NCBI GenBank assembly: GCA_965204795.1
Contig: OZ242012.1
Span: 355,861-419,860, forward strand
Direction: 5' to 3'
Source of the DNA: Thermodesulfobacteriota bacterium
Lineage (GTDB): Bacteria > Desulfobacterota_D > UBA1144 > Nemesobacterales > Nemesobacteraceae
Length of the DNA stretch: 64,000 nt
Positions 15,203 through 40,924 of the stretch are shown one piece after another. Within the stretch, counting starts at the first letter, position 1; each line of letters starts with the position of its first letter. The position numbers were made by a program, and so were the translations under genes. The notes under the pieces were generated by a model that was not told the DNA's origin, ran no database searches, and saw only the letters and a list, made by a program, of their open reading frames with translations.

Positions 15203-15755
15203 GGGAAACGGGGTAATTATACATTCTTCCCCCGTTTCATCCAGAGGCCGGCGGGAAAACGACGGCCGCCGGGCTTTGGCCAAACGGCTGCGCGTTAAGC
15301 ATCGCATCCCGCGCCATGCCTCGCGCTCGCGTTACGGTTGCGGATGGCGGACTGCCGTTGTTGGGCGGTGTTCGGAAAACGGCAAAAGAGAGACGGAACT
15401 TATTACGACCGCACGGGAGACGCGATGCGTATAGAGCACGATATTCTCCGGCAGGGAAAGAAGCCGTACTGCTGACCCGGCCGCTATGATAATGACCCCC
15501 CTCACTACTCCATCGCTGGAGAGAACCCCCGGGTTCTTGTCATCAAGGGGGTACCTTTGGAACGGCGAATAGCTTACCACTTCCAGAGTTGTTAATTCAA
15601 GGGGTGTGTTTCGCTATCCCGCGCAGGGTGGATTTTCTTTCAGTCAAGCCAGGCAGCCGGACACGGAAATTTCCCCTCGACGTTTTCGTCCCCAGGGAAT
15701 TAAGTCGGGCGTTTTGGAACCTCTCCGGATTTTCCGGCAACCGTTTCGGCGGCCT

Positions 15756-15941
15756 TCAGTCCTTGAAGACCGTTATAAGTATCAGAAGACTCGCCAGGAA
15801 GCACAATATCCCCGCAAGTCTGATCCTGAGGGACAAGCCGGTGAAAAAAATCATCGCGAGTCCCAGCACGAGCCCGCCGCCGGCCGCGACTCCGAGAAAC
15901 ACATCCAGAGGTCCCGAAAGCTTGTAAGGCACCATATCCAT
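15756..15941 (-). CDS. Small two-TM membrane protein (61 aa)
   Basis: GAGAGGA about 7 nt upstream of the ATG and two clear hydrophobic helices. No family recognised. Confidence 0.55.
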   Translation of the reverse strand: MDMVPYKLSGPLDVFLGVAAGGGLVLGLAMIFFTGLSLRIRLAGILCFLASLLILITVFKD

Positions 15942-16170
15942 ATACGTATCCTCTCAACAGCGATTCAAGGGCAAATCTCCTTCGTTTCGGAAACGGAATT
16001 TTATTGGAAAACATGGCGTCTTGTCAATCGGTTTTTCCTGTTTGGGCTTATCAGGCTTCTGATTGTAATACGAAATGACCGCCGAACTACAACGGGGATG
16101 TACGGTAATTGGGTAGAGAGGCAAAGTTTGTGTAGAATTCAATCGGACTTCCGGAGGCCGTGCGGTACTG

Positions 16171-17076
16171 ATGAAACTGCTTGACGCGATTGACAGTCTT
16201 AAGGTCTCGACCAGGGGAGACATAAGATCTCCTCACAAGCCTCTGTTTCTTCTGTACGCACTTGCGAAACAAGCGCGGGATTCAAACGCGAAGTTTGAGT
16301 TCTCGAAAATAAGAAAAGATGTTCAAACGCTTCTGAAAAAATTCGGACGGCCCGTTAAGTCCAGCAGTCGAGTATATTATCCATTCTGGCGTCTACAAAA
16401 CGATGGAATCTGGAAAGTGTGTTCGGATGAAGAGATAAGGCTGACTGGACAGGGCGACGCCTATGCGCCCGACTTGATAAAGTACAACGCCACAGGTTGC
16501 TTTTCCGCGGAGATTGCTCGGGAGATAAGAGAAAATCCGAATCTTGTTCCAATGGCCGCTCAGAAGTTGCTGGACGGGCATTTTCCCGAAACGTTGCACA
16601 GGGAAATTAGAGATGAGCTGGAAAGCATGGGTTTGTCTTGGGAAATGGATTACCACAAGCCGTCCCCGAAGACTAAAAGAGATCCCAAGTTTCGTAAAAA
16701 AGTTCTCTACGCTTACAAGTACAGTTGCGCTGTGTGCGGCTTCGACTTGCACTTGGGAGACATGCCGGTCGCGCTGGAAGCGGCGCACATAAAGTGGCAT
16801 CAGAACGGAGGGCCGGATACGGAAGACAACGGGCTTGCCCTGTGCTCTACCCACCATGCGCTTCTTGATTCTGGGGCACTTGGTTTATCTGATGATTATC
16901 AGGTTGTTTTGTCAAAATCCGCGCATAGTCCCAGCAACAGAAAGAGCTCCATAATGGAGCAGAAACTCCGAAAACGGAGAATTACTTTGCCTGCGGACGA
17001 GCGAAACTATCCGAACGTGAAATACATTCGCTGGCACAGAAGAGAGGTGTTCAACGAGCACGAAATTGCTCTTTAG
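16171..17076 (+). CDS. Phosphorothioated-DNA-binding restriction endonuclease (SBD-HNH), copy 1
   Basis: N-terminal PHKPLFLLYAL and YYPFWRLQNDGIW match the ScoMcrA-type sulfur-binding pocket (H-R/K-P plus Y-P-F-W-x-L). C-terminal CAVCG...LEAAHIKWH..GGPD...NGLALCSTHH..LD.G is an HNH domain. Confidence 0.8.
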   Translation: MKLLDAIDSLKVSTRGDIRSPHKPLFLLYALAKQARDSNAKFEFSKIRKDVQTLLKKFGRPVKSSSRVYYPFWRLQNDGIWKVCSDEEIRLTGQGDAYAPDLIKYNATGCFSAEIAREIRENPNLVPMAAQKLLDGHFPETLHREIRDELESMGLSWEMDYHKPSPKTKRDPKFRKKVLYAYKYSCAVCGFDLHLGDMPVALEAAHIKWHQNGGPDTEDNGLALCSTHHALLDSGALGLSDDYQVVLSKSAHSPSNRKSSIMEQKLRKRRITLPADERNYPNVKYIRWHRREVFNEHEIAL

Positions 17077-17126
17077 AGTATTAAGGAAGTAGTTTCTTGA
17101 CAGATGGTCAGGCTGGGTTGAGGAAG

Positions 17127-18020
17127 ATGAAGTTACTGGATGCGATTGACAATCTTAAGACTTGGAAGCGGGGAGGTGAAAGAGCCCCTCACAAGCCGTT
17201 ACTTCTTCTCTACGCCCTTGCTAAATATACTAACGACCCCGAAGCGAAACTCGAGTTTTCCCTTATAGAGGATGATATTCACGAGCTTTTGAATGAGTTC
17301 TGGAAGATAAGACCGAGTAAACATCACGTGAATGACCCGTTCTGGCGTCTTCAGAACGACAAAATCTGGCAAGTGGAGGCCGATGGGGAGATAAGGCAAA
17401 CATCTTCGGGTTCCGCTTATGTCGCCGACCTGAAAAGGTACAATGCGGCAGGTTTTTTCTCTCATAATGTTGCCAAGGAGATAAGAGACAATCCGAATCT
17501 TGTGCAAAGAGCTGTACAGAAGCTTCTGGACGAACATTTTCCCGAAACGTTGCACACGAGCCTTCGGGAAAGTGTAGGGCTGTTTCATGGAACGATTTCT
17601 TATGAGAAATCTTCCAAGAAGATCAGGCGAGACCCTAAGTTCCGCGAAAATGTTCTTCACGCTTACGGATACAGTTGTGCCGTATGCGGCTTTAATCTTC
17701 GAGTAAAAACCCTCCCTGTGGGACTGGAGGCGGCTCATATAAAATGGCATCAGTACGGAGGACCGGACACGGAGAACAACGGCCTTGCGCTTTGCGCTAC
17801 TCATCACAAGCTTCTCGACTCGGGGGTGCTGACACTTTCTGAAGACTACAGGGTTATCCTGTCGAAGTGGGTACACAGCCCGGACGACTCGGACAAGTTC
17901 ATCGAGCGACATCAAGAACGGGAAATCAGATTGCCGACGAACAAGAAACATTCCCCCGGCAAAGACTATATTCGCTGGCACAGGAAAGAAGTGTTCAAAG
18001 AACCTGAAATTGCTCTTTAG
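17127..18020 (+). CDS. Phosphorothioated-DNA-binding restriction endonuclease (SBD-HNH), copy 2
   Basis: GGERAPHKPLLLLYAL, NDPFWRLQNDKIW and the same HNH motifs. Paralogue of 16171-17076 (same MKLLDAID start and EIAL end). ATG at 17127 follows GAGGA. Confidence 0.8.
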   Translation: MKLLDAIDNLKTWKRGGERAPHKPLLLLYALAKYTNDPEAKLEFSLIEDDIHELLNEFWKIRPSKHHVNDPFWRLQNDKIWQVEADGEIRQTSSGSAYVADLKRYNAAGFFSHNVAKEIRDNPNLVQRAVQKLLDEHFPETLHTSLRESVGLFHGTISYEKSSKKIRRDPKFRENVLHAYGYSCAVCGFNLRVKTLPVGLEAAHIKWHQYGGPDTENNGLALCATHHKLLDSGVLTLSEDYRVILSKWVHSPDDSDKFIERHQEREIRLPTNKKHSPGKDYIRWHRKEVFKEPEIAL

Positions 18021-18077
18021 TCAAAGTCGGGTATATTAAATTCCAGTGTTCTTTTGTTTTTTCCACTTCTGCCGATT

Positions 18078-20021
18078 ATGACGGGAACTAACAGTTTCGC
18101 ATCTCTCCAATTTACCGGCCTGTCCTCCCCTGAAGGTTTTGCATCCAAGAGTTTAGCCACCGAGAACACCGTCGAGCCTGGTCCCATAGTGCGTGAACTC
18201 ATACAGAATTCACTAGACGCGGGGCATCTGGCGGGACGGGAGCAAGTAAAGGTCTGTTTCGCTCTGGAAGAAGTCGCGACATGCGACTTGCCGGGGATAG
18301 AAGAGTACGAAAGGGCGTTTGACGCCGCGAAGAAAACCCACAAGGATCATCTGGGAAATGTCGGAGCGCAGATTTCCCGTATAGAAAAAAGCCTGGAGGC
18401 GAAGGCCGTAAGAATTTTGAACGTGCGCGACAACGGGATAGGTCTCGACCCTGAAAAGATGAATTCGCTCCTGGGAGACGGAACGACGAGCAAGAACGAG
18501 GGAGGATTGGCCGGTTCATACGGACTCGGTCACTTTACCGCGTTCCCGGCTTCGAACCTTCAATTCGTTCTCTACGGCGGAGTGACGAAGGATTCAACGC
18601 GGACGGCGTCCGCGCACGCCATACTCGCATCACACGAAATCGACGGTGGAGTGAAGGGAAAAGACGGTTTCCTGATCAAAAGCATTCATGAAGAAAAAGT
18701 GCGCGACCGCTATGTCTTTCCGACAAATGGTGAAATTGCCCCCTTGCTGGACTCGCAGCTCGATGTTGTTGAAAGAGACTATGGTTCGGGTTCCGTGATT
18801 TCAATCACGGCTTTCAATAATTTCCTTGAGAACGACGAGGATTCTTCCGTAATGGCGATTCTTACCACGGCCGCCATGCATTTTTCTCCTGCCGTCCATA
18901 ACGGTTCCCTTGTAGTCGAGGTGGTTAGAAAAAATGGCTCCGAGCGGAAAATTTTGGACAGACAGTCACTAGGTTCCATAATTCAGGAAAACAGAAAAGG
19001 CAGAAGAAGCGGTGAAGACAAGCTTTCACCCAGAAACGCGTATAATGCATACGAGACCCTCGTACGCGGCGAGAAACGTGAAGTCGAAACAAGTTTCGGG
19101 AAAGTGACTCTATGTATCCGTCAGTCTCCTCAGGACACCACCCAAATCAATCTTTTCCGTAGCGGCATGTGGATAAGTAACAACCTGCCCAGGAACAGAC
19201 GCTACAACTATTCGGACTACAAACAATTTAACGCGTTGGTGCTTATCAATCCCCCCAGTGAAGCCTTTGATTTAGTGCGTCTCTCCGAGGGCGAAAAACA
19301 TCTGGACATAAATTCCAAGAGACTGGTTGACGAGCAAAAAATCAGGTTTGACAGCTTCTGGGGGGAAATCAGAAATAAGATTACCGAAAGTCTGGAGAAG
19401 TCGGAATCTGACGAGTTTTCTCCCAACGTTTTCATACTTACTCCTCCTGAAAGAAAAGAACCTAGGTCGACCGTACGTCGCAAGTCTTCCACGCCCGAAA
19501 CCCCGGAAATCAATCTGGAAGAGCAAGTGCCGGAACCCGCTTTTGCGCCCGCCGACCCGGAAGACCCGATTTATCCAGACCCCGGCCCCGGTCCGCGCAA
19601 TCCAAAAAAATCTTCGGGACCGGGCGACGAGCCTGGCGATGTTCCGTCTTTTAACCGGAGCGGTCGAGTCGCGGATGTTCTAACCGCCGCCAAGTTTGAC
19701 TCAGAACGGGTGAGGCTGGTCATACGCAGCAACGAGGACATGATAAACGCGGGAGTCAGATTGTGTCTGGATAACGGAGCCGACGCTTCCTGCGAAAAAC
19801 CCGCAGCGGACCAATTCATTCCGTTCGGGAAGAACGCTCTTCTGGATGGAATTCCTCTTGAAGACGATTACTACCGAGAAGGTCGCGAAGGAGCGTTGGA
19901 ACTTTTGATAGGAGCTATAGCAAAGGGTCAGACTAAAACGGTGACCCTTCCTCTTGTGAGCGTACTTCCTCAGGATGCCGTCGTGAAAGTAAACATAGTG
20001 AGCAGGGAAAAGGAAAAGTAG
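18078..20021 (+). CDS. GHKL (MORC/Hsp90/MutL-fold) ATPase-domain protein with Pro/Gly-rich linker
   Basis: Bergerat-fold motifs RELIQNSLDA, VRDNGIGL, GSYGLGHF and GSGSVISI, plus the linker PDPGPGPRNPKKSSGPG. Start is ATG 18078 or TTG 18054. Confidence 0.75.
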   Translation: MTGTNSFASLQFTGLSSPEGFASKSLATENTVEPGPIVRELIQNSLDAGHLAGREQVKVCFALEEVATCDLPGIEEYERAFDAAKKTHKDHLGNVGAQISRIEKSLEAKAVRILNVRDNGIGLDPEKMNSLLGDGTTSKNEGGLAGSYGLGHFTAFPASNLQFVLYGGVTKDSTRTASAHAILASHEIDGGVKGKDGFLIKSIHEEKVRDRYVFPTNGEIAPLLDSQLDVVERDYGSGSVISITAFNNFLENDEDSSVMAILTTAAMHFSPAVHNGSLVVEVVRKNGSERKILDRQSLGSIIQENRKGRRSGEDKLSPRNAYNAYETLVRGEKREVETSFGKVTLCIRQSPQDTTQINLFRSGMWISNNLPRNRRYNYSDYKQFNALVLINPPSEAFDLVRLSEGEKHLDINSKRLVDEQKIRFDSFWGEIRNKITESLEKSESDEFSPNVFILTPPERKEPRSTVRRKSSTPETPEINLEEQVPEPAFAPADPEDPIYPDPGPGPRNPKKSSGPGDEPGDVPSFNRSGRVADVLTAAKFDSERVRLVIRSNEDMINAGVRLCLDNGADASCEKPAADQFIPFGKNALLDGIPLEDDYYREGREGALELLIGAIAKGQTKTVTLPLVSVLPQDAVVKVNIVSREKEK

Positions 20022-20033
20022 AGGGCGATTCCG

Positions 20034-20879
20034 GTGGCATCCGTACTTCCAAGGATTCATTCTTATCCGGTACTGGCGAAAAACAGTTTGGATTATCTGC
20101 CGGAGCATCAATACGAAACGCAGCACAGCCGCACTGAGAGCAAGGACAGTCCTTTCATAACAATCGACCACCAAATTTCGGAGAGCAATCTGGTGGCGAG
20201 GTTCATATCGGAAGGATATGCGGCTTTTGCATGTACTCTGACATCAGCTCATTCCGCTTACAGAGAAGTTTTTGTTGAAAAAACGAGGGACCTGAAACAC
20301 ATCCAGAAACTCGCATGGGATAATCGAAAGGTGTTGTTTCCTCTTCTTTTTCAGCCCGCGGTCGTAGTATTGAGGGAAATAAAAGACTGTTATCTCGGCG
20401 GAGCTGACGGAGTGCATGAAATATGGAGGGGCAGTAGGGCATCCTTTCCAAAAGGTTCGATACTGGCGATCGCGCCTTTCTGGCAGTCTCAAAGCACGGC
20501 ACAGAGCATCCTCCGCATACGCAAGGAGGAGGAAATTCCGGAGGGATGTTACGAAGTGATTGAATCGGTAGAGGAAGGATTCTATTTTCTGGTCAAAGCA
20601 AGCCCCAAGCTTTTCGACTCTCTTCAGAACCCGGGCAAGCACAGTCTTCGCCACAGAGACAGCATATATACGGCTGCATTTGCCGAAGGACTGGGTATCC
20701 TGAACAGAGAGTTCAAGGACGAAGAAAAATGGAGAAACTATCATAACCTGAGGTCTCTTCATGCTGAGTTGAAGAGAAAAAAGCTCAAGGCATGGTACGA
20801 CGATGATTTCAGTCCGAACCGTGCCGCGGCGGCTTTTCTTCCGCACAAAATAGATACGGAGGCTTCTTCTGATGATTAA
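20034..20879 (+). CDS. Hypothetical protein (281 aa) of the islet operon
   Basis: Long ORF 12 bp after the GHKL gene and overlapping the next gene. No catalytic motif recognised. Confidence 0.7.
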   Translation: MASVLPRIHSYPVLAKNSLDYLPEHQYETQHSRTESKDSPFITIDHQISESNLVARFISEGYAAFACTLTSAHSAYREVFVEKTRDLKHIQKLAWDNRKVLFPLLFQPAVVVLREIKDCYLGGADGVHEIWRGSRASFPKGSILAIAPFWQSQSTAQSILRIRKEEEIPEGCYEVIESVEEGFYFLVKASPKLFDSLQNPGKHSLRHRDSIYTAAFAEGLGILNREFKDEEKWRNYHNLRSLHAELKRKKLKAWYDDDFSPNRAAAAFLPHKIDTEASSDD

Positions 20880-21756
20880 GGAAATTCTGGTCTCGGGGAA
20901 TCTGGGCAAGCTCAGAAGCGACCTCATCGGAAAATCGTCTGATGAGAATGGCCTTCGCTTAAAAAAACAGAAGGAACTTGCCGAGTTGGCAATAGACTCA
21001 GATAGCCGAAAGTTCGTCAACTACTTCAAATCTCATTGCAAAACAGAAGTTCTAGCGCAATGGGGTAATGGTTCTACCCCCCCCCCTAAAAATCGGCGTT
21101 TAACCGAATCAGAACTTTTCGAACCGCCTCAAGACACCGAAGAGGCGGTTTTCAATTCGTTAAGAAATCTTCCCCGGAGGCTGGCCTCCTACCCCGCGTT
21201 CTGGACGAGCTATCACCTCGACATGATGGAGTCCGGTCTTGTGGAACCCAGTTACTTTGCCAAGGTGCAGATCAGCGAGGCCGGCCAAGCGCGCACCGAG
21301 AAAGCATTGGCTTTAGTCTCGGTTGACGAGAAACCTCTTGACCGGTGTATCCGAACGATTCTGCGTCGCATGGGCGGATTGCCGGAAGCCCGGGGTTCCG
21401 TAAGCGTCTTTCAGGATTGCAGAACGGCCAGATCTTGGTGGAGAGGCTTGTTTGTGGATGAAGTTTGCGGGGAGTTAGGGACGGATAGGGACAGGGCATG
21501 GAAGGTTTTGAGGACAAACCAGATATGGGAGCAGTTAACGGGTTACGTCGTGCAGAAGCTTACGGTTCTGGGAGATACGAGGATCAGGATTGCGCTGATA
21601 GCTTACTTCGCCGAGATGGATTCCGTTCCCAACGACCGGGACAAGGTTCAGGACATTCTCAACCGCATAGGACGAAGAACCGCGTACCAGATGATGGGGG
21701 TACTGTCGCCCAAGGAAAATCTGGAGATTATAAGGAGCATTTGTCGTGAGTCCTGA
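20872..21756 (+). CDS. Hypothetical protein (294 aa), DUF6339-like
   Basis: Overlaps both neighbours. LASYPAFWTSYH and RTARSWW resemble, from memory, DUF6339-type motifs; not verified. Confidence 0.5.
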   Translation: MIKEILVSGNLGKLRSDLIGKSSDENGLRLKKQKELAELAIDSDSRKFVNYFKSHCKTEVLAQWGNGSTPPPKNRRLTESELFEPPQDTEEAVFNSLRNLPRRLASYPAFWTSYHLDMMESGLVEPSYFAKVQISEAGQARTEKALALVSVDEKPLDRCIRTILRRMGGLPEARGSVSVFQDCRTARSWWRGLFVDEVCGELGTDRDRAWKVLRTNQIWEQLTGYVVQKLTVLGDTRIRIALIAYFAEMDSVPNDRDKVQDILNRIGRRTAYQMMGVLSPKENLEIIRSICRES

Positions 21757-23017
21757 CATCGGCAAGATCAGGTTGAGCAAGGTGCCGGACCTGTCCATTC
21801 AGTACGAGATGGATGAACATAGAACATGGCCGCACGTGCTCAAGTTTTCGGGAGGAAGGTCAAGCGCGATGCTGCTCGTTTCTCTTCTGAAGAACCGCCA
21901 GCTGAAACCGTCCCGGGGCGATGTGGTCATCTTCAACAACACGGCCGCGGAGCACCCTGCCACTTACGAATTCGCTTCCATATGCAAGAGGCTCGCTGAA
22001 GAGCGCTATAACATCCCGTTTTTCTGGATAGAGTTCAAAACTTATGAGGATGCCAGAAGAGGAAGGTGGACGCGTCTTTCAAACTACAGGCTGGTAAAAG
22101 ATCATCCATTCGCGGCTAATCGTCCTTACGGCTATCGGTACAAGGGCGAAGTGTTTGAGGAAATGCTTTCGTGGAAGCAGCGTCTTCCAAACCATCTGCA
22201 GCGACTCTGCACACAGCACCTCAAACTGGAAACCACGATTAATTTTCTCGGGGACTGGTTCGCTTTCAAAACCGGCACTCCGCGTCTGGGGCACTGGCAC
22301 GGTGGGAGTCGGGTCAATTTTCTCGGACGGGGCGACCTGAAAAAAATCGTAAGTTATCACCTTAGCACTTCCGTGGAGAGACCCGCCCAGAAGTTTCGGG
22401 ATTATACGAAAGCGTCTCCAATACGCATAAGAAATTCCAGTATGCAAAACAAGAGTTTCGGTGGGACCGCAGAGTTGAAAGGAGATAATCCGGTGGACTT
22501 TGTGACTCTCGTGGGTCTTCGAGCCGATGAATTTCGCAGGGTTGCCAGAGTGAAGGCCAGGAACAACGGCGGACTTGCGGAAGACAACGCCGACAAGCTG
22601 GCTCACGGAGAACACATCTACACGCCGCTTGCGGACCATGGGATTACCAAGAACGACACTATGGAATTCTGGCTCAGGCAGTCCTGGGATCTGCGAATTC
22701 CTCACTCCGTCAATTTTTCAAACTGCGTTTACTGTTTCATGAAAGGAAAAAAAGCTCTCACGCGAATAATAAAAGAGCAGTCGGAAAACCCTATTCCGGT
22801 CAGGTACCGCAAAACTCCGGTCGATATTGCTTGGTGGATAGACATTGAAAACCGTTACGCCCGCAGGGTCTCCAGCACTAAAGAAGAAAACTCGATGACA
22901 CGGTTCGGCTTCTTCGGGGCGAATTCACCCACAACATACTCCTCTCTCTACGAAGACGCAGAGGAGGATGAAGGCGTATTTATAGATGATGCCATGCCTT
23001 GTGACTGTACCGATTAG
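21746..23017 (+). CDS. PP-loop / PAPS-reductase-like (adenine nucleotide alpha hydrolase) protein with Cys clusters
   Basis: FSGGRSSAML PP-loop, NNTAAEHPATYEF, RLCTQHLK, VGLRADE..R, PLADHGITK, SNCVYCFMKG and C-terminal PCDCTD. Confidence 0.8.
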   Translation: MSPDIGKIRLSKVPDLSIQYEMDEHRTWPHVLKFSGGRSSAMLLVSLLKNRQLKPSRGDVVIFNNTAAEHPATYEFASICKRLAEERYNIPFFWIEFKTYEDARRGRWTRLSNYRLVKDHPFAANRPYGYRYKGEVFEEMLSWKQRLPNHLQRLCTQHLKLETTINFLGDWFAFKTGTPRLGHWHGGSRVNFLGRGDLKKIVSYHLSTSVERPAQKFRDYTKASPIRIRNSSMQNKSFGGTAELKGDNPVDFVTLVGLRADEFRRVARVKARNNGGLAEDNADKLAHGEHIYTPLADHGITKNDTMEFWLRQSWDLRIPHSVNFSNCVYCFMKGKKALTRIIKEQSENPIPVRYRKTPVDIAWWIDIENRYARRVSSTKEENSMTRFGFFGANSPTTYSSLYEDAEEDEGVFIDDAMPCDCTD

Positions 23018-23023
23018 AGAAAA

Positions 23024-24202
23024 GTGGATTATGGAACAATGAAGAACGGTTTGAAAACAGTGTATCTGGATCATCAGGCGACGACGCCTGTAGATTCCCG
23101 AGTGCTTGCCGCAATGAAGCCGTTTTTCAGGAATTTTTTCGAGAATCCGCATACCGATAATTATCGCTCCGCGGTCCAAGTGCGTGAAGCGGTGGAGAAG
23201 GCGAGGATACAGATCGCCCGGGCAATCGGCTCGCGCAGTGCGGCGGCGGTTGTATTCACTGGAAGTGCTACCGAGGCAAACAATCTCGCCATTTGCGGAA
23301 CAGCTGCCGCTGCGAGAAGAGGACGCAACCGGATCGTTACCCTAGCTACGGAACATAAGGCTGTGCTGGAACCCGTGAAGGCGATGGTCAATGCCGGATT
23401 TGAAGTGTCTATTCTTAAGGTTCAGCGCAACGGGATAGTTGACTTGGATGTTGTCCGCAAGTCTGTTGATTCGCGCACTCTTTTGCTGTCGGCAATGATG
23501 GTCAACAACGAAACAGGGGTCATACAACAGATAAAGGAAATAGCGGGAATCTGTCATGAACAGGGAGTCATTTTTCACAGCGACTGCGCCCAGGCTCTCG
23601 GCAAGATTCCCGTTGACGTGTCGGAACTTGATTTGGACTTGGCGACTTTTTCCGCACACAAAGCCTACGGTCCGAAAGGAATAGGGTGTCTTTACGTTCG
23701 CCCGCGCCCGAGAGTGAGGATAAAACCCGTAATTCTAGGAGGAGGGCAAGAAGGAGGACTTCGTTCGGGAACTTTGCCAGTACCTCTATGTGTCGGTTTC
23801 GGTGTAGCTGCAAAAATAGCTAGTGAGCAAACAGATAAGGACATGGAAAAGATTACAAAGCTGACCGATATGCTGTTTCACGGCATCAGGAAAATCAAAC
23901 CTGATGTGATGCTTAACGGAGACCCTGAAAAGCGAGCTCCAGGATGTCTTAACATTATGTTTCCTGGTTACAGAAGCGATAGTTTGCTTCAGGCTATTCC
24001 TCAAGTTGCTGCATCCACGGGTTCTGCCTGCGCGGCAACGGAAACTAACCCGTCTCATGTATTGCGTGCTTTAGGTCTTTCAAAAGATCAGGCTAACAGT
24101 TCGGTGCGTTTTGGGGTCGGTCGCGGGACGACCCGAAAGGAAATATTGAAAACATTAGATGTTATAAATGAGGCAATTAGTTCTAGGGTGGAAAACTACT
24201 AG
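23024..24202 (+). CDS. Cysteine desulfurase (IscS/NifS class; DndA/SspA-like by context)
   Basis: YLDHQATTP, FTGSATEANN, DCAQALGK, SAHKAYGPKG (PLP lysine), GGGQEGGLRSGT and STGSAC (catalytic Cys). No isc/suf neighbours. Confidence 0.92.
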   Translation: MDYGTMKNGLKTVYLDHQATTPVDSRVLAAMKPFFRNFFENPHTDNYRSAVQVREAVEKARIQIARAIGSRSAAAVVFTGSATEANNLAICGTAAAARRGRNRIVTLATEHKAVLEPVKAMVNAGFEVSILKVQRNGIVDLDVVRKSVDSRTLLLSAMMVNNETGVIQQIKEIAGICHEQGVIFHSDCAQALGKIPVDVSELDLDLATFSAHKAYGPKGIGCLYVRPRPRVRIKPVILGGGQEGGLRSGTLPVPLCVGFGVAAKIASEQTDKDMEKITKLTDMLFHGIRKIKPDVMLNGDPEKRAPGCLNIMFPGYRSDSLLQAIPQVAASTGSACAATETNPSHVLRALGLSKDQANSSVRFGVGRGTTRKEILKTLDVINEAISSRVENY

Positions 24203-24213
24203 GAGGGAATCCA

Positions 24214-26487
24214 ATGTCTGGTATTGATCTGCAAGGCTATGAATCTCGCGTATACAATATCCATCATCTTTTTGATAAAACGGAAGAAGGTTTCTTCGTC
24301 CCGTTGTATCAACGGGAATACACTTGGGTAGACGAGAATATAAACCAGTTTTTTGAGGATCTTGTATTAGGTATATGGGAACTTTCCAATAAAAATGATA
24401 AAAATGCAGTAACTTTCTTCGGCACTCTAATTTTTACGAATTTAGTTGACAAGACAACCACTGTGAAAAAGGGTGAAGACAATGCTCAGCCTACGGCAGT
24501 TCAACTTGTTATTGATGGTCAGCAACGTATTTCTACAATAGCCCTCTTGGCAATTCAGTTAAGGGAACGACTTAAATCGTTCAGAAGCAAATTACCGGAT
24601 GGAAACCTCTACAAAGTTCTGAGAAATCATTGTGATGATCTGAAGGACGAAAAACTTCCCAAACTCTATACGATCAAGCTGGGACGTGGTGCAAATCCAC
24701 CAAAGAAACCCAAAATTATTTCCGCTAAAGGAGAAGATCGGTGGACATATGACGGTGGTGATGAGTCGTATGGTTCTCCTGTGGCACATTATATTGCAAC
24801 TTATATACGTGAAGAGGATCTTGAGAAAGCGTTTGACTCAATTGTCTCTGTACGTGTACACAAGAACGTTAAATTGATAAATCGATGGCTTGATGGAATT
24901 TGCTCTAACGAACCCGGTTCTTTGCATGACGGTCAGTTTCCGACGGATACAGAGATCGTTTCGGATAGGATGCAAGAATATATTCTCGGCTATAAAAGCG
25001 ATCAGATAAGAAATGTCATTGGACAGAATTGTGATAATAGCTCACATATTGCCACACAGACTTACCGTCTTTTTTTACTTGCTTACTATCTACTAAATCG
25101 TTGTGCAGTAAACCGCCTGCAACCTCCACATGAGGATTGGGGCTTTGATATGTTTCAGGCCCTTAATGCAACTGGTACACCGCTTACGGCTATGGAAACA
25201 TTTCTTCCCAATGTTATGCGAGCTGAAAAGAGAGTTGGAAACGAATGGGAGAAAACACCATCTTCTGAACATATGGACGAAATTGAACAGCTTTTTAAAG
25301 CGACAAATAATAACCAACAGAAAAGCCGTCGCACCAATGAACTTCTGAACACTTTCGCTTTGTGCTATGAGGGTAAAAAACTCGGAAATAAATTCAGCAC
25401 ACAGAGAAGGTGGATAACAGATATCTATGAAAACAATTTGCAAAATCTTGAAGAAAAACGTGAATTTCTTCGTCATCTTGCAGATGTTGGAAAATTTTTT
25501 TATGTCGCTTGGTACATGGAAGATAATCCCGGTCATATCATGGGGCTTGAACATCACGAAGAGGAGGGGAATTTAGTTCCTTTTCTCATTCGCTACTTGA
25601 AGGATGCAAATTCCAAACTTTCCGCGCCAATACTGGCACGGTATTACAGTCAAGCAGTTAGGGATGAGAAATATATGGATGAGTTTGTTGAAGCTGTTAA
25701 GGCCTGTGCAGCCTTTTTTACATTATGGCGGTCTGCGCGGTCTGCAACGGGACTTGATAAGAATTACAGGAATTTTTTCAGAGGTGACAAAGGTAACAAA
25801 CATAACTGGCTACAACCCAAACAGGTTTCATCAAAAAGTCTAAAAGAACATTTTCTTGATGTTCTCAGAGATAATCAAATTTACGAAAAAGATTCATGGA
25901 TTGAGGAGTCGAAACGTTTCTTGCTTTATACGGAAGTAAAGGTTATCTGTCGTTTCGTGTTGTTTCTTGCGGGGCATGACCGTGCTGGTGATGATACAAG
26001 GCCAGGGCTTACGACTTCCGGTAACACGGGAGTCTGTTCGCTTCTTAATCTTGAAAAATGGCTCTCAAAAAATTATAAATCGTTGGAACATATTGCACCC
26101 CAAAAGCCTCCGAAAAAACATAATTGGGATAGGGGTATCTATACGGGAAATAAGGTGCATGAAGTTGGAAATCTTTTACTATTGCGGACGGAAGTTAACA
26201 GACTTGCTGACAATAAGAATTGGGTCGAAAAATTTCTTTACTACTCTCATGTTGGCAAAAGTAGGGACCAAGACATTAAGGAGCTCAGAGAAGAAGCGGA
26301 AAAAGAAGGGATAAGGCTTAGCGAAAAAGCTATTAAAGAATTGTTAACAACTCCTTATGCCCGTGTGGTAGAACCTGTACTGACTTTAGGCAAAGGGGGT
26401 CGTTGGGATGCTAGAATGATTGATGAAAGGACAAATCAGATCAAGGAAATAGCTTGGGAAAAACTCACGTCTTGGTTGAAAATTTGA
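24214..26487 (+). CDS. DUF262-DUF1524 protein, SspE-like (GmrSD superfamily) restriction effector
   Basis: FFVPLYQREYTW, VIDGQQR, FDMFQALNATGTPLTAMETF, and C-terminal SLEHIAPQ...GNLLLL...N HNH-like nuclease. Length (757 aa) and internal motifs fit the SspE clade as I recall it. Confidence 0.75.
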   Translation: MSGIDLQGYESRVYNIHHLFDKTEEGFFVPLYQREYTWVDENINQFFEDLVLGIWELSNKNDKNAVTFFGTLIFTNLVDKTTTVKKGEDNAQPTAVQLVIDGQQRISTIALLAIQLRERLKSFRSKLPDGNLYKVLRNHCDDLKDEKLPKLYTIKLGRGANPPKKPKIISAKGEDRWTYDGGDESYGSPVAHYIATYIREEDLEKAFDSIVSVRVHKNVKLINRWLDGICSNEPGSLHDGQFPTDTEIVSDRMQEYILGYKSDQIRNVIGQNCDNSSHIATQTYRLFLLAYYLLNRCAVNRLQPPHEDWGFDMFQALNATGTPLTAMETFLPNVMRAEKRVGNEWEKTPSSEHMDEIEQLFKATNNNQQKSRRTNELLNTFALCYEGKKLGNKFSTQRRWITDIYENNLQNLEEKREFLRHLADVGKFFYVAWYMEDNPGHIMGLEHHEEEGNLVPFLIRYLKDANSKLSAPILARYYSQAVRDEKYMDEFVEAVKACAAFFTLWRSARSATGLDKNYRNFFRGDKGNKHNWLQPKQVSSKSLKEHFLDVLRDNQIYEKDSWIEESKRFLLYTEVKVICRFVLFLAGHDRAGDDTRPGLTTSGNTGVCSLLNLEKWLSKNYKSLEHIAPQKPPKKHNWDRGIYTGNKVHEVGNLLLLRTEVNRLADNKNWVEKFLYYSHVGKSRDQDIKELREEAEKEGIRLSEKAIKELLTTPYARVVEPVLTLGKGGRWDARMIDERTNQIKEIAWEKLTSWLKI

Positions 26488-26776
26488 GTACGCTAACGCT
26501 GGCAAACAAAGGCTAGCGGGAGTTTGTTGCGAAACGAGTCAAGCTTCCATGTAAGAACAATCTAGCTCGCTGAAACGCTCTGTATTACCCTAATTATTAC
26601 TTCCAACAATATACTTTATCCTGGCCTAGGGAGAATGGTACTGCTCAGAACTGCTAAGTTCTTGAAGAAGAAAATCCTGTTTCAACAGGCAGTTGTAAAA
26701 GGACTGGAGCCATCCCAGTTAATATGAACCCCAGTGGGTAATAATGCCCAATTCTCAATAAAACCAGATTCCCTCC

Positions 26777-27451
26777 CTACCTGCACCTTCTCTCAATTTC
26801 CCCAATTCTCTCTCTTTCACGCGAGTCGCTTCCGAGTCCCCATATCCTCTTGACCCGTTTCCACGAACGAACGTACTCGCAGTGATAGGTTCGATTCGAC
26901 GGAAGCCATCTCGCGGGATCTTTTGCTCCCTTCGCTCGATTTTCCCTTCTTGAAACGGCGATGAGAGTGTCGGGGTAGGAAAGATCGTTAGCGAAACTCC
27001 GTTTCCTCGCAGTGCTCCAGTACGCTCCGCCGCTTATATGGGCTTCCTTCAGCGGAACGAGATGGTCCACGTCAAGCTCCTTCGGATTTGTAAAAACTTT
27101 TCCGGAGTAAGGGTCCGCCCACTTCCCCGAAACCACCCAGCAGCCGTCGGCGGAAAGAGTAACGGGAACGAGCGATTCCTCTATAAGCACCTCGTGCCGC
27201 GTGTTCTGGCAGTCCCCGTCGGCGTCTCCCCATCTCGGAAGCCATTCCTTCCGGTTGTACCTGGAACCTCCGTAGGATTTCTTCCGGTTCTCGGCTTCGG
27301 GACCCCGGTGGCAGTGACGCTCCCCGGTTTTCCTGTCGGCGTGACATCCCCGCTTGTCCAGCCCTCCGCCGTGCCCAAAAGCGGAAGAACTCCAGAACAG
27401 GAGGGCGCAGAGCGCCGCGAGCGGAATAACCAGGCTTCTATTGTTCGGCAA
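26777..27451 (-). CDS. Secreted HNH (DUF1524-type) endonuclease with an N-terminal YHYH-like His motif
   Basis: Signal peptide, HGGGLDKRGCH...HCH, then TRHEVL, LDVDHLVPLKEAH.SG, FANDL, NRAKGAKDPARWLP and CEYVRSW. Confidence 0.8.
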   Translation of the reverse strand: MPNNRSLVIPLAALCALLFWSSSAFGHGGGLDKRGCHADRKTGERHCHRGPEAENRKKSYGGSRYNRKEWLPRWGDADGDCQNTRHEVLIEESLVPVTLSADGCWVVSGKWADPYSGKVFTNPKELDVDHLVPLKEAHISGGAYWSTARKRSFANDLSYPDTLIAVSRRENRAKGAKDPARWLPSNRTYHCEYVRSWKRVKRIWGLGSDSRERERIGEIERRCR

Positions 27452-37076: not shown

Positions 37077-39011
37077 CTACCGGGTCAGGCCCATTTCCAC
37101 CAGGAATCTGGATGCTTCCTTCGGATAGCCCGAATACCGGCCGGCCCTGCTCAGGATGAGGCGTTCCTTCGCGCGCGTGATGGCGACAAAGCAGTTTCTC
37201 CGCTCCTCTTCCATTTCGGGACTGTCGTCGCCTTTTTTAAGACTTTGGTAAGAAGGCATGATTTCTTCCGCGAGGCCTATGACGTAGACGATGTCGAACT
37301 GCAGTCCTTTGGCGGCGTGGATCGTCATCAGGGTGACCGATTCGGGGTCGGGGGAAGGCTCCTTGGAACGCAGCTGAAGCTGCTGGAGGAACTGGTTCAG
37401 CGGAATTTTCCTGCCGTGAAGTTTTCCGATGTTATGGGTGATTTCCCGCCATGCCGCCATATCTTCCGAAAGGTCGCCGTCGCGACCCGCCCTGCCGTTT
37501 GACAAAAGCGAGTCGAACTTGCCGACAATATCGTTGATCGGTTTTCTCGCGGACGACGAGTTGAGGGAGAGACTCCTGACGGATTCAAGCAGTAAGCTAC
37601 GCGGGAAAGCGCCGTTTCCGCTGTTTGCGTTCTCGGCTTCTCCAATCCATGCGTCAAGATAGCTTTCGCCGCTTATTTCCGCCCGGGAGACGACATGATC
37701 GACATCGACCTTAATCCCGGCGACCCGGTTGTAAGCTTCAACCAGAACTCCCACGTTGTGCCGGTCAAGAGGCCTCAAAGCCTGCGTTATGCAGGCTACC
37801 AGCCATCTGAATTCCGGAGAAAGGAAATCTTCCCTGCGTTGCGAGATGACCGCAGGAACTTTTTGTCTCAAAAGCGCTTCCCTCATGTTTTCGAGCAACG
37901 CGCGGGTTCGCGCTAAAACGGTTATGCAGCTCCATTGACGCGACCCGCAAGCGGCTATCTCTCCAGCTATTTCGTCGGCTTCCTCCTCTTCGGAGACGAA
38001 CTCGCGGACCTGTAAGCGTTCTTCTTTAGGAAACTTGAAATCGGTCTTGCCCGTAGCGAGCGGTTTTTTCTTTTCCGTGCGCTCGACGTTGTAGGCGACG
38101 AGGCGGTTTGCCGCTTCCACTATGATGCCCGGACAGCGATAGTTGGTCGGAAGCTGTATCAGTTCCGGAGAAAAATCCCTGCGCAGGCGCTGAATCTGGC
38201 GGAAACTGGCTCCGTTCCATCGATAGATGATTTGATCGTCGTCGGCGACGGCGAAAACATTTTGGAATTCTTCTCCAGCCATGGTGCGAACGAGCTGATA
38301 CTGTGCTTGGTTGGTGTCCTGAAATTCGTCTATAAGCCAGTAGGGATAGGATACTTGGTAGTGTTCCGCTATGACGGGAAACGTCTTGACGAGCTCATGC
38401 GCTTCGAATATAAGAGAGTTAAAATCTAGGGCGTTTAGCGTTCGAAGCTCTTCTTCGTACATGCGATAGATTTCGGCGGCACGTCTTGGATCAGGCAGAT
38501 TCTTAAATCTTTCTTCAATGTCGTCCGGTTTGATCAGCCGCGCTTTCATTCGGTCGACAAATTTGAGATAACCAGAGTAATCAATGTTTGGAAGCCCGTA
38601 TGAGGAAGACTCTTTTGCCAGAGCGTCTTCAAGCACCGCAAGGCGGTCGTTTTCTCGGGAGTAAATTGTAAAATCGGGTTTGATGCCTATGTGCACTCCA
38701 TGCTGACGGAGAACCTGCGCGCAGAAACTGTGGAAGGTCCCGATAGTGGCGCGTTCTTCAAGCCCGGGAACGAAAGCTGCGACGCGTTCTTTCATTTCAT
38801 CCGCGGCCTTGTTGGTGAAGGTAAGCGCGAGCACCCTGAACTTCTTGCCGCGCGAAGAATCGAGCAGACGCGCGATGCGGCAGGTGAGAACCTGGGTTTT
38901 TCCCGAACCGGGCCCGGCGAGCACAAGCATCGAACCGTCATTCCAGTCCACCGCTCTGCGCTGTATTTTCGAGAGGTCTCCCAGAGCTATATCCAAAGAA
39001 CGGGCGTTCAT
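37077..39011 (-). CDS. UvrD/REP helicase, Gabija GajB-like, pair 1
   Basis: AGPGSGKT, TFTNKAA, IDEFQDTN, PTNYRC, TIHAAKGLQF and EEERRNCFVAITRA. ATGA-coupled to the OLD nuclease. Confidence 0.85.
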   Translation of the reverse strand: MNARSLDIALGDLSKIQRRAVDWNDGSMLVLAGPGSGKTQVLTCRIARLLDSSRGKKFRVLALTFTNKAADEMKERVAAFVPGLEERATIGTFHSFCAQVLRQHGVHIGIKPDFTIYSRENDRLAVLEDALAKESSSYGLPNIDYSGYLKFVDRMKARLIKPDDIEERFKNLPDPRRAAEIYRMYEEELRTLNALDFNSLIFEAHELVKTFPVIAEHYQVSYPYWLIDEFQDTNQAQYQLVRTMAGEEFQNVFAVADDDQIIYRWNGASFRQIQRLRRDFSPELIQLPTNYRCPGIIVEAANRLVAYNVERTEKKKPLATGKTDFKFPKEERLQVREFVSEEEEADEIAGEIAACGSRQWSCITVLARTRALLENMREALLRQKVPAVISQRREDFLSPEFRWLVACITQALRPLDRHNVGVLVEAYNRVAGIKVDVDHVVSRAEISGESYLDAWIGEAENANSGNGAFPRSLLLESVRSLSLNSSSARKPINDIVGKFDSLLSNGRAGRDGDLSEDMAAWREITHNIGKLHGRKIPLNQFLQQLQLRSKEPSPDPESVTLMTIHAAKGLQFDIVYVIGLAEEIMPSYQSLKKGDDSPEMEEERRNCFVAITRAKERLILSRAGRYSGYPKEASRFLVEMGLTR

Positions 39012-40924
39012 TCAAGGCTCCCCAGATCTTTTATCGCGTTGCGGAAAGCTTCGGGCATGTAGGATGCAAGCGCCGAATTACCATGAAGCATCAGGGCCAG
39101 TTCCGCCGCATATTCCGTTTTGTGTTTCTTGAGAAGACTTTTAAGGTTTTTCGAATCTATCTCTTCGGCGTCTTTGTGTCCCGTGTTCAGGAGGGCGTCG
39201 CGAAGTTTGGATTCCAGCCCGTCGGACAGAAGCTGCTGTTCGAGATTTCCGGCTGAATGTGTGCGGCACCGCTCTTTTGCGAGGTCGGCATCGCCGATTC
39301 GTGATTTTATTTCCCGAATTCTCTTTTTGCCTGCGCAATCGCCGTCAAGCACCACGAGCCATGGAATTCCGAGAGCCTGGGCCAGCGCTGTGAAAAGCTT
39401 GGGGTTTCCGTTGTTCATCGAATCGATAAGGGATACTCCATGCTCGTCTAGGTCGTATCCAATCTCCCGAGCCAAGGCACTGACCAGCAGGTATTCCGCC
39501 TGACCTTCTACGATAAGCCACCTGTGCGCAAAAAATATCTCGCCTCGAATCCGGCGGGCAAACGTCTCAAGTTTTCTCAGTTCGTCATTATTTATAAAGA
39601 GCGAAGAACGGTCCAGCAGTTCCCGCAGTCTTTCGTGTATTTTGGTCTTTTCAGGATGTTTGCTGTAGCAACGGAGCAACTTTTTGTAGAGATTCTTTTC
39701 GAGCTTGCCGTGAACCGTAAGCGTTTCCGCCACCCTTTCATATCTTAAAAACCCCTTGCCGTTGCTGACAACGGCGTCAATACCCTCGACGTGAGGAATG
39801 TCTTGTGCTGAGAAACTTTCCGGGAGCGACCTGACTTCGGTTCCACTGTCTGTGAGCCGGACTAGGCGAAGGTCTCGAAAGGAAACATGTTGGACGAAGT
39901 AGGGAGAATGAGTGGTGATGATTTTCTGACCGGGCAGGTTGTTAACATGAGCCCACAGCGTCCGTGCCGCGTGAGGATGCAGATGGGTCTCCGGTTCCTC
40001 AAGAGCTAGAACCGGAGCACTGTCGTCTTCGTAGAGTTCGGAGAGGAGATGCTCGACGAAAGCCTGAAAAAGAAAAATGACGGAAAGACTCTGCACCCCT
40101 TGGCCATGCCGCTGAAGCGGGAGCCATGGCCAGCTCCGTTCGTTCCGCATTATTATCTGTGCTTTCGACAGCAAATCCCAGGACTTGAGCGGAACGAGGC
40201 GAAGATCAACTTCACCGTCGCCGCTTCTCGCGGCGACCCGGGTCGCGCCGGAAAGCGTATCGGCGATTTTCTTCAATCGGGGATCGGCTTTAAGAAGCTT
40301 GCTGTTTAGCTTGTCGAGAGCGCTTTGCACCTGAGTCTCAAGCTCCGAAGGTATGTTCATCGCCTTGAGCAAGCGTCCCCAGAACTGAGAACGCGAAGAG
40401 AACTCGTCGTCCGCGTCACGCAGGGCTCCTAGGTAGAATACAGGAAGGTAGTGCCAGAAGCTCTCCAGATTGATCCGCCGCGCCGAGTCTCCCGTCAACG
40501 GTTCTCTCGCGGCGTTTAGAAACTGCCAGACGGGCTGAAAACTTTCATCTTCGGCGTTCCAGGCGCAGCTTACGCGCAGGACTATGGAGTTTTTGCCTGT
40601 AGCAGGGTCGGGCTGGTAAATGCCGGTAAGATCCTGCCGCAGTTCGGCGGACCACTCGCCTTTTTCCCGCTCTTCCGCATGAAGCTCAATGGAAACTCCT
40701 GGCGACTGTTTCGGGTCGCTTTCTTCGTTCTCGAGATGGATGTCATACTCGGTAAAGCCTGTTCCTCTCTGCCCCCATCTTCTGGTCAAAGCTATTCGTA
40801 CCGCATCGAGGATGGCGGTTTTTCCCGCGTTGTTCGGACCTATAAATACGGTTGTGTCCCCGAGTTCTATGTCAAGGACCTTCAGCGACCGGAAATTCTT
40901 TATGTGGAGACGAGTAATGCGCAT
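39008..40924 (-). CDS. OLD family ATP-dependent nuclease (ABC ATPase + TOPRIM), Gabija GajA-like, pair 1
   Basis: IKNFRS, GPNNAGKT, HGQGVQS, LEEPETHLHP, TTHSP, and TOPRIM EGQAE and LDGD. Confidence 0.88.
   Translation of the reverse strand: MRITRLHIKNFRSLKVLDIELGDTTVFIGPNNAGKTAILDAVRIALTRRWGQRGTGFTEYDIHLENEESDPKQSPGVSIELHAEEREKGEWSAELRQDLTGIYQPDPATGKNSIVLRVSCAWNAEDESFQPVWQFLNAAREPLTGDSARRINLESFWHYLPVFYLGALRDADDEFSSRSQFWGRLLKAMNIPSELETQVQSALDKLNSKLLKADPRLKKIADTLSGATRVAARSGDGEVDLRLVPLKSWDLLSKAQIIMRNERSWPWLPLQRHGQGVQSLSVIFLFQAFVEHLLSELYEDDSAPVLALEEPETHLHPHAARTLWAHVNNLPGQKIITTHSPYFVQHVSFRDLRLVRLTDSGTEVRSLPESFSAQDIPHVEGIDAVVSNGKGFLRYERVAETLTVHGKLEKNLYKKLLRCYSKHPEKTKIHERLRELLDRSSLFINNDELRKLETFARRIRGEIFFAHRWLIVEGQAEYLLVSALAREIGYDLDEHGVSLIDSMNNGNPKLFTALAQALGIPWLVVLDGDCAGKKRIREIKSRIGDADLAKERCRTHSAGNLEQQLLSDGLESKLRDALLNTGHKDAEEIDSKNLKSLLKKHKTEYAAELALMLHGNSALASYMPEAFRNAIKDLGSLE

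Follow-up and report, generated by a model that had tools for sequence, protein, structure and literature searches.

Two divergent alleles of a phosphorothioate-dependent SBD-HNH nuclease gene joined in tandem upstream of a putative non-canonical sulfur writer

The stretch analyzed here (the window; 64,000 nucleotides of contig OZ242012.1, assembly GCA_965204795.1, from a Thermodesulfobacteriota bacterium) carries on its plus strand two adjacent genes, A (16171–17076, 301 aa) and B (17127–18020, 297 aa from ATG), both coding for phosphorothioate (PT)-dependent restriction endonucleases made of a sulfur-binding domain (SBD) and an HNH domain, with a pocket of the YY-PFW type in A and of the ND-PFW type in B. 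A and B represent two allelic lineages, both old, of one hotspot edge gene and were joined by recombination: a 9.4-kb block, composed of B, a five-gene putative writer and a gene for the effector SspE, entered after an A-type gene, and the joint falls within the last ~20 nt of A. In a sponge-associated lineage that is Thermodesulfobacteriota- or Dadabacteria-like, one defence hotspot always has an SBD-HNH gene at its left edge, and the five-gene core following B appears, by association, to be a PT-type writer with an architecture unlike both Dnd and Ssp. As enzymes, A and B add to a family already known, and links between PT readers and PT writers have been discussed in the literature before; the novelty lies in the tandem of two alleles, in the constant place of the SBD-HNH gene at the edge, next to three kinds of PT system, in the non-canonical writer and in the natural writer-less controls.

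Both proteins matched the profile NF045808 (“phosphorothioated DNA-binding restriction endonuclease”; cutoff 180 bits) over profile positions 2–283/284, with scores of 305.4 bits for A and 323.9 bits for B, and both contained PF13391 (HNH_2) at 2e-10 and 9e-11. Their database relatives all carry precomputed PF26340 (DNA-SBD_ScoMcrA) together with PF13391. When compared with PDB sequences, the N-terminal halves matched the ScoMcrA SBD (5zmm and 5zmo) at E values of 1e-11 to 1e-6 (for A, 1.3e-11 with 5zmm and 2.8e-8 with 5zmo), and the C-terminal halves matched the HNH domain of TagI (E values of 2.4e-9 for A and 2e-8 for B). The AlphaFold2 model of B showed a predicted local distance difference test (pLDDT) score of 80–92 for residues 1–150 and of 30–60 for the HNH half, the latter being poor because the alignment was shallow (25 sequences). 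In a Foldseek search with the N-terminal domain of B the top 15 matches were all SBDs of ScoMcrA, SprMcrA or Hga; the best agreement was with ScoMcrA 5zmo (E value 3e-7, template modelling (TM) score 0.82, root-mean-square deviation 2.6 Å), followed by SprMcrA 7ccd/7ccj (TM score about 0.7) and Hga 8h0l (TM score 0.66). The SBD was therefore assigned by fold and sequence in B, and by sequence only in A. An earlier sequence-only reading of this DNA had taken A and B for SBD-HNH enzymes, and the NF045808 and ScoMcrA matches, together with the modelled fold of the N-terminal domain of B, agree with that assignment.

The sulfur pocket of ScoMcrA is formed by H116, R117 (Lys in most homologues), Y164, P165 and A168 (Liu et al. 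2018, PMC6224610). In the 25-sequence alignment of the A/B clade the pocket residues H22, K23, P24, P71, F72 and W73 were invariant, and so were the HNH and zinc-site residues C184, C187, H204, N218, C223, H226 and H227. No conserved pocket or catalytic residue is missing from A or B, and both genes are under purifying selection. The ratio of nonsynonymous to synonymous substitution (dN/dS) against orthologues was 0.14–0.25 for A and 0.10–0.18 for B, indicating that both are maintained as functional genes, and the reading frames were intact in every relative.

The two same-strand open reading frames (ORFs), separated by a spacer of 50 bp and both starting with MKLLDAID and ending with EIAL, had been recognized in the sequence-only reading and were recovered here. 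An in-frame TTG at 17097 would extend B by 10 aa to 307 aa, but 17127 is the likely start since all homologues begin with MKLL and a GAGGAAG stands just before the ATG. Overall the two proteins are 59% identical (BLASTP, E value 6e-117). The identity is 68% over residues 1–40, drops to 37% over residues 41–70, which precede the PFW motif, and returns to 65% over residues 71–150; it amounts to 73% in the HNH core (residues 176–245) and to 48% at the C-terminus. Thus, the HNH halves are conserved and the pre-pocket segment is divergent, as had been noted, and the two pre-pocket segments quoted at that time, GRPVKSSSRVYYPFW and WKIRPSKHHVNDPFW, are correct.

The start MKLLDAID is kept across the whole clade and is uninformative about this pair specifically. 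The last 54 nt of both genes are 85% identical, as compared with ~65% over the whole genes, and the orthologues of A in other genomes terminate in NMHYS, NRHYL or NGHYL; the common EIAL ending is due to a local B-like patch formed by the last ~22 nt of A.

The lid position of the pocket, equivalent to Y164 of ScoMcrA, is Tyr in A and Asp in B, Asn or Phe in the sister clades and Tyr in the outgroups, and falls in the least conserved stretch between the two proteins. In ScoMcrA homologues Y164 is conserved in just 7 of 23 proteins since it also contacts bases, it has been linked to sequence specificity, and the Y164M replacement gave stronger binding (PMC6224610). Judged from these residues, the proposal that A and B may cover different PT motifs is plausible.

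The description of the pair as duplicates did not hold. The closest relatives of A are proteins P0036–P0040 and those of B are P0001 and P0002 (P-numbers designate related proteins, L-numbers comparison loci and X-numbers public runs), in each case with 82–98% identity; for B a large group at ~68% follows. The similarity between A and B is no greater than that of either to dozens of other proteins, and the synonymous divergence between them is 1.95, that is, saturated at about 2. The A-type gene occurs alone in L087 and L088, and the B-type gene alone in L001, L004 and L170–L174. At the DNA level, homology to the A-only genomes (L085, L087, L088) stops at 17054–17061, and homology to the B cassettes (L001, L004, L085, L170–L172) begins at 17115–17126; from 17126 to 26481 the homology between the window and L001 is unbroken. 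The stretch in which the A block meets the B cassette (17054–17126) consists of the B-like tail of A and the 50-nt spacer that holds the ribosome-binding site of B. Public sequence data showed the same joint: in run X1 a contig breaks exactly at 17054/17055, where the depth falls, from left to right, from 71 to 25, and run X2 contains another continuation after 17054 which reads N-V-H-C-stop, the native A-type ending. The depth step and the alternative joint indicate co-existing strains that share the A block and differ downstream. A local tandem duplication is ruled out by the separate old clades, the dS of about 2, the solo alleles in other genomes and the mapped junctions. Tandem SBD-HNH pairs were also seen in unrelated metagenome contigs (L128, 10001–11965; L104, 204–2600; one of these pairs scored 230 and 189 bits with 166 bp between the genes), and a doubled SBD-HNH gene is therefore not unique to this locus.

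The relatives of A and B that were looked up all belong to one bacterial lineage and occupy one chromosomal site, with the order SelO, DUF2103, dnaE (minus strand), CHAD, ppk, ppx, SBD-HNH, a variable island, in some cases a YHYH protein, an AMP-ligase (minus strand) and TatC. DnaE of the closest genomes is 87–89% identical to that of the window, and the flanking DNA is 87–89% identical in L085, L087, L088 and L004 and 74–78% in L170–L173. L004 is a GTDB representative metagenome-assembled genome (MAG) labelled Thermodesulfobacteriota, and one relative is labelled Candidatus Dadabacteria.

The content of the island next to the nuclease varied. In L171 the SBD-HNH gene stands by itself between ppx and the AMP-ligase, and in L170 it is followed by HipA, DUF6088 and AbiEii. 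In L172 and L174 it precedes a core of the same gene order as in the window (type 1, p3-p4-p5-p6-p7) and a DUF262 protein, and in L173 and L175 it precedes canonical SspB (DUF4007), SspC and SspD followed by SspF, SspG and SspH; for the Ssp cassette of this type PADLOC gave 1198 bits for SspC (L173), 5e-211 for SspF and 5e-131 for SspG. L087 and L088 contain a 61-aa ORF, the A-type gene and a core of the order p6-p7-p3-p4-p5 (type 2), whose genes are 26–43% identical to those of the window, together with a different SspE. The remaining loci carry additional genes before a B-type gene and a type-1 core: in L085 the A-type gene with HATPase, DEAD-helicase and PLD genes; in L004 HATPase, an insertion sequence (IS) element, helicase and PLD genes, with a DUF262 protein after the core; and in L001 Dcm, Vsr, HATPase, Z1, DUF4420 and AIPR genes, with SspE after the core. 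L002 is arranged as the window but with another SspE, and the SspE gene behaves as an exchangeable allele: through the end of p7, and once more from the YHYH gene on, L002, X5 and X10 share ~96% identity with the window, but in the region between (24114–26848) 2610 nt with an SspE of 28% identity replace 2733 nt. The module of a HATPase_c_3 protein, a DEAD/ResIII helicase and a PLD-family nuclease (L085, 11136–15478; L004, 2888–8884) is inserted between the left edge of the island and the B-type gene, and an IS transposase interrupts the L004 copy.

In total, a PT system lies directly downstream of the nuclease in 9 of the 11 look-ups of A/B relatives (51–98% identity), whereas two relatives (L170 and L171) have the nuclease without a writer. 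Three kinds of PT system, namely the type-1 core, the type-2 core and canonical SspBCD-SspFGH, are found at this site, and in type-1 cassettes the B-type gene is always directly upstream of p3. Hosts with 91–92% identical Ppx have SBD-HNH genes that are 53–75% identical and vary with the downstream system, which does not support a vertically inherited backbone gene. The identity of the B-type protein follows that of p3 in six of seven type-1 loci (nuclease/p3, for example, 82/89, 63/69, 60/61 and 89/88%), the exception being L174, in which the nuclease is 69% and p3 43% identical. Likewise, between L173 and L175 SspC is 89% and SspF 96% identical and SBD-HNH 60%, and these discordant cases do not support strict co-inheritance with the cassette. 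In this lineage SBD-HNH is neither a backbone gene nor strictly a cassette gene.

Genes A to p8 form a run of eight plus-strand genes (A, B, p3, p4, p5, p6, p7 and p8) within a low-GC island at ~15.3–27.5 kb of the window (GC 0.41–0.51, as compared with 0.60–0.65 in the flanks). The first gene of the writer core, p3 (18078–20021, 647 aa), encodes a GHKL-type ATPase of a rare, unnamed family with weak matches to HATPase_c_3, MutL and Topo VI-B and a PADLOC match to PDC-M33A (5.2e-26). The next one, p4 (20034–20879, 281 aa), encodes a protein without known family which matched PDC-M33B (1.2e-9); no Pfam family was found in its 49 relatives, and PDB searches with it gave no meaningful match. The product of p5 (20872–21756, 294 aa) is a DUF6339 protein, PF19866 matching 34 of 49 family members, and its AlphaFold2 model is confident (mean pLDDT 83.7) and all-alpha, with no fold match among PDB structures (best E value 0.5). 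With profiles of p4 and p5, the PDB sequences gave either no match or none of any meaning. For p5 a triple winged-helix protein similar to SspB/DndG was considered and rejected, as the confident model has no counterpart in the PDB. In p6 (21746–23017, 423 aa), an ATP-pyrophosphatase-like protein with a PP-loop (SGGxxS), only the PP-loop region at residues 30–78 matched PADLOC SspD (9e-9) and BrxP, and Pfam (including PAPS_reduct), NCBIfam and PDB searches gave no match. The product of p7 (23024–24202, 392 aa) is a cysteine desulfurase of the IscS/DndA/SspA type (Aminotran_5, 1e-75; PADLOC DndA 2e-138 and SspA 8e-138, accepted as an SspA component), and that of p8 (24214–26487, 757 aa) is the PT-sensing effector SspE, with a DUF262 NTPase and a DUF1524 nickase domain; it matched PADLOC SspE over residues 14–755 (3.8e-209) and SspE 6jiv over the full length (1e-79), and keeps the Y-Q of the PT-sensing patch described for SspE (PMC9646914).

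Canonical SspABCD and DndABCDE were both rejected as the identity of the operon. Among p3–p6 there was no PADLOC or Pfam match to SspB/DUF4007 and no PADLOC or NCBIfam match to DndB, DndC, DndD or DndE, and p3 showed no match to SspC, an Orc/Cdc6- or BrxC-like ATPase of ~1050–1130 aa. The controls were positive, with true DUF4007 genes in L083, L173 and L175, SspC of L173 at 1198 bits, and DndC and DndD of L103 at E-190 and E-160. The proposal that a sulfur writer lies downstream was supported by association: besides a desulfurase of the DndA/SspA type and a PP-loop protein, the operon includes a genuine SspE, and operons related to it stand beside PbeA, PbeC or a dnd-associated methyltransferase. 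In the literature on PDC-M33, DUF6339 and a GHKL-type PT writer nothing was found describing this core.

To follow the spread of the core, one genome per GTDB species was taken; of the 132 stretches encoding a p3 relative, 79 distinct loci were kept. These span many phyla, including many MAGs of sponge symbionts, with the five genes contiguous in nearly all of them and arranged in two gene orders. The recurrent neighbours are all PT-related: a DUF262 protein in 23 loci (neighbour clustering), PbeA in ~18 (PADLOC 1e-148; TIGR04095, “DNA phosphorothioation system restriction enzyme”), a PbeC/DndD-like ATPase in 16 (PADLOC PbeC 5e-46; TIGR03185 DndD 2.5e-19) and TIGR04096 in 12 (578 bits). The core is thus coupled to SspE, DUF262, PbeA/PbeC or the dnd-associated methyltransferase. 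A full-length SBD-HNH match was present within 10 kb in three of the 79 loci, L004, which belongs to the lineage of the window, and L048 and L062, which do not; a weaker SBD-HNH match reached the N-terminal half in L011, and only the HNH part matched in L010. The generic background consisted of 80 SBD-HNH metagenome loci from a JGI scan (at most 44% identity), 35 of them of at least 8 kb. None contained p3–p5, and three were near PT genes: L156, with the overlapping genes SspH, SBD-HNH and SspA; L103, with SBD-HNH beside dndC-D-A and PbeA/C; and L120, with SBD-HNH beside a cysteine desulfurase.

The gene p5 contains a C10 homopolymer at 21077–21086, within codons for S-T-P-P-P-K; in the model this part is a loop of low confidence. 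No other homopolymer of at least 10 occurs in the 64-kb window, and the more diverged cassettes lack the tract. The tract is C10 in the window, L001, X2 and X5, C11 in L002 and X1, and C9 in X10; in L002 (C11) p5 is split into 72 and 227 aa. The tract could serve as a phase-variable switch that turns the writer on and off, or its length differences could be homopolymer assembly errors.

As to the function of A and B, their position beside a sulfur writer had been called paradoxical, with the two resolutions that the host mark is ignored by these enzymes or that they act as readers of the new system. The paradox and both resolutions are already in the literature (PMC7461809, PMC10853773). The reading favoured here, to which we give about an even chance, is that A and B are autonomous type IV enzymes directed against foreign PT-DNA with motifs that the host writer does not make. 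Judged by homology with solved SBD complexes, the N-terminal winged-helix SBD would capture an Rp phosphorothioate in duplex DNA, with the sulfur held in a hydrophobic pocket made of H-K-P (residues 22–24) and [Y or D]-P-F-W (residues 70–73), and the HNH/zinc-finger domain would then cut nearby, as in characterized relatives. The resident writer would mark host DNA for SspE with a PT pattern ignored by A and B, such as a hemi-modified motif of the Ssp type, to which hardly any characterized SBD binds. A and B would attack DNA arriving from the many other PT-positive microbes of the sponge, and the Tyr or Asp at the lid together with the divergent pre-pocket segment would broaden the range of foreign motifs. 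The characterized SBDs, roughly ten in number, are selective for sequence, and the hemi CpsCA mark of Ssp systems is bound by SBD-Hga alone (PMC10602919), which makes it plausible that A and B ignore the resident mark. PT genes are enriched in sponge metagenomes (PMC5099237), so that foreign PT-DNA is a realistic threat in this habitat. The SBD-HNH genes of L170 and L171, which have no writer at all and are still under purifying selection, favour the autonomous type IV reading, and the scarcity of SBD-HNH among the core loci shows that the writer does not generally depend on the nuclease. Several observations weigh against this reading, however. The linkage of nuclease and writer in the lineage (9 of 11) is far tighter than a generic defence-island effect; B lies on the strand of p3 and 57 bp upstream of it, with the homology to L001 extending from the ATG of B to the end of SspE; the identity of the B-type protein tracks that of p3 in six of seven type-1 loci; and, when compared with Ppx, the nuclease behaves as a variable cassette part and not as backbone.

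Some of these observations speak for A and B as integral reader-effectors that read the PT marks of the host itself for self/non-self discrimination, as SspE does, with PT binding either restraining the HNH domain on host DNA or licensing cleavage of an unmarked invader in trans; this is a possible though clearly less probable explanation. Besides the same strand, the short gap, the 9.4-kb homology block opening at the start codon of B and the co-divergence with p3, it is favoured by the repeated immediate adjacency to three different PT systems at the site, by independent cases in other lineages (L156, L103, L048 and L062) and by the precedent of SBD-SRA-HNH in Dnd loci of 698 taxa, for which such a model has been put forward (PMC10853773). 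The pocket type also pairs with the system (YY with type 2; ND, EF and QY with type 1; HY with canonical Ssp), but this correlation is confounded by phylogeny. Moreover, every characterized SBD-HNH or SBD-nuclease is activated and not inhibited by PT and kills matching dnd cells (PMC6224610, PMC7461809, PMC10602919); the gene is under purifying selection without a writer in L170 and L171; the L173/L175 pair and L174 are discordant; and most core loci use SspE, DUF262 or Pbe modules without SBD-HNH. The stronger version, that SBD-HNH is a genuine third component of an undescribed PT system, reading host marks rather than attacking them, with A and B as two reading specificities and the C-tract switching writing, is improbable; if true, the new writer would be flanked by two PT readers, SBD-HNH upstream and SspE downstream, and a type IV restriction fold would have been re-used as a self-recognition module. 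With the same biochemistry as autonomous type IV enzymes, A and B could instead protect the incumbent system by killing cells, or destroying DNA, that acquire a rival PT writer at the hotspot, in analogy to methyl-specific nucleases that kill on epigenetic takeover. PT cassettes and SspE alleles are indeed exchanged among co-existing strains, as seen from the depth step, alternative joints and breakpoints, three incompatible-looking PT systems alternate at one site, and ScoMcrA and EcoWI block establishment of a dnd cluster (PMC6224610, PMC7461809). A is found together with type-1 as well as type-2 cores (window, L085, L087) and so cannot exclude either of them; we consider this role quite improbable. 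Finally, if one or both copies were catalytically silent relics or pure PT-DNA binders, such as regulators, there would be no conflict with the writer. Bsp48385I, the one dnd-adjacent SBD-HNH protein studied, had residual activity only (Lutz et al., PMC7461809), in B the lid tyrosine is replaced by Asp, and the HNH half of B was modelled poorly. Nonetheless, all HNH, zinc-ligand and pocket residues are invariant, the whole-gene dN/dS is 0.10–0.25, the lid is naturally variable, with Tyr in 7 of 23 homologues and stronger binding by Y164M (PMC6224610), and the poor HNH model reflects the shallow alignment, which makes silent copies very unlikely. The autonomous type IV reading is thus preferred, the writer-less relatives being in its favour. 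Overall, the identity of the enzymes, a plausible difference in their specificity and the adjacent sulfur writer were retained from the sequence-only reading, and the duplication was not.

A and B resemble the two-domain SBD-HNH enzymes EcoWI and SprMcrA (NF045808) in architecture, length (~300 aa) and full-length profile match, and they share the SBD fold, the H-K/R-P and x-P-F-W pocket and an HNH_2 domain with a CxxC...C...H zinc site. They are just ~40–45% identical to the generic NF045808 members found, B has the lid Asp, and, unlike in that class, two divergent alleles stand in tandem beside a PT writer. SBD-HNH genes are next to dnd in <3.6% of cases, for which differing specificity or inactivity was suggested (Lutz et al. 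2020, PMC7461809). SBD-SRA-HNH proteins occur in Dnd loci in 698 of 4287 taxa and were proposed as the real restriction arm of these loci (2024 NAR, PMC10853773); for that class the coupling of a reader-nuclease to PT modification genes is already documented. Both published figures fit the linkage counts obtained here. The SBD of B is homologous to that of ScoMcrA (TM score 0.82), but A and B have no SRA/SAD domain, their partner is the GHKL/DUF6339/PP-loop core with SspE in place of DndABCDE, and they stand upstream rather than downstream of the modification genes. Hga is likewise a PT-dependent SBD nuclease, to which the SBD fold of B is less similar (TM score 0.66); its nuclease domain is of the PD-(D/E)XK type, and it is sequence-promiscuous through a short L4 loop and recognizes hemi CpsCA, whereas the loops of A and B are longer and of ScoMcrA-like length.

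On the writer side, the window shares with SspABCD-SspE an SspE orthologue, a DndA/SspA-type desulfurase and a PP-loop enzyme, and also the module logic of a sulfur donor, an adenylating enzyme, an ATPase, DNA-binding partners and a PT-sensing nickase. It has neither the DUF4007 SspB nor the SspC of ~1100 aa, which in the canonical Ssp locus of the Sphingomonas plasmid pBAR3 are both present (SspC of 1102 aa); in their place are the 647-aa GHKL ATPase, the 281-aa protein and DUF6339, and p6, with 423 aa, is matched by SspD over ~50 residues. In terms of PADLOC PDC-M33, p3 is the A match and p4, encoded by the adjacent gene, the B match; the library gives no function for this system, and no published function was found in the literature. 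On an Arthrobacter plasmid a p3-like (GHKL-like) protein, a protein of 295 aa and DUF6339 are encoded beside a Shedu nuclease, with no sulfur genes, so that p3-p4-p5 is a separable module. In the window this trio is joined in one operon with a PP-loop enzyme and a desulfurase and coupled to PT-specific restriction modules.

The setting matters more than the enzymes, as PT-dependent nucleases co-exist with three PT writers at one chromosomal site. The writer-less sister genomes serve as natural controls and make it testable how a cell both writes and restricts sulfur-modified DNA. The alleles A and B differ where SBD specificity is thought to reside and offer material for specificity studies and for PT mapping of the EcoWI-seq type. 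If the core were shown to write PT, Dnd and Ssp would be joined by a third architecture of writer.

At the left edge of the island a 61-aa ORF with two hydrophobic segments (15756–15941, minus strand) goes with A-type genes; copies of 59–98% identity were found left of the island in L001, L002, L004 and L085–L089, and a Pfam search with it gave no match. In a promoter and terminator scan of 15300–18300 the counts were at or near shuffle expectation, no terminator was found between A, B and p3, and the usable result was one minus-strand promoter-like site, a sigma-70-like sequence at 16027–15998 that matches at 11 of 12 positions and lies on the same strand as the 61-aa ORF. The window sequence was present in sponge and marine metagenome runs; no RNA runs informative on expression could be identified, the runs that hold the sequence being contigs of unrecorded or DNA-like type. 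CHAD-ppk-ppx, which nine related genomes have between dnaE and SBD-HNH, is missing at 15245–16170 and from the whole 64-kb window (tblastn, no hit).

The right edge of the island is marked by a 224-aa YHYH/GmrSD_C (DUF1524) protein (26777–27451, minus strand; NF033223 YHYH 1.6e-9, PF07510 9e-6) with an N-terminal signal-like segment, and this edge is conserved, the protein being 86–94% identical in relatives that carry different islands. Farther downstream, the window contains two Gabija-like pairs (37077–40924, minus strand; 50762–54486, plus strand), in each of which an OLD-family ATPase-TOPRIM protein is followed by a UvrD-type helicase, and both are located in patches of lower GC than their surroundings.

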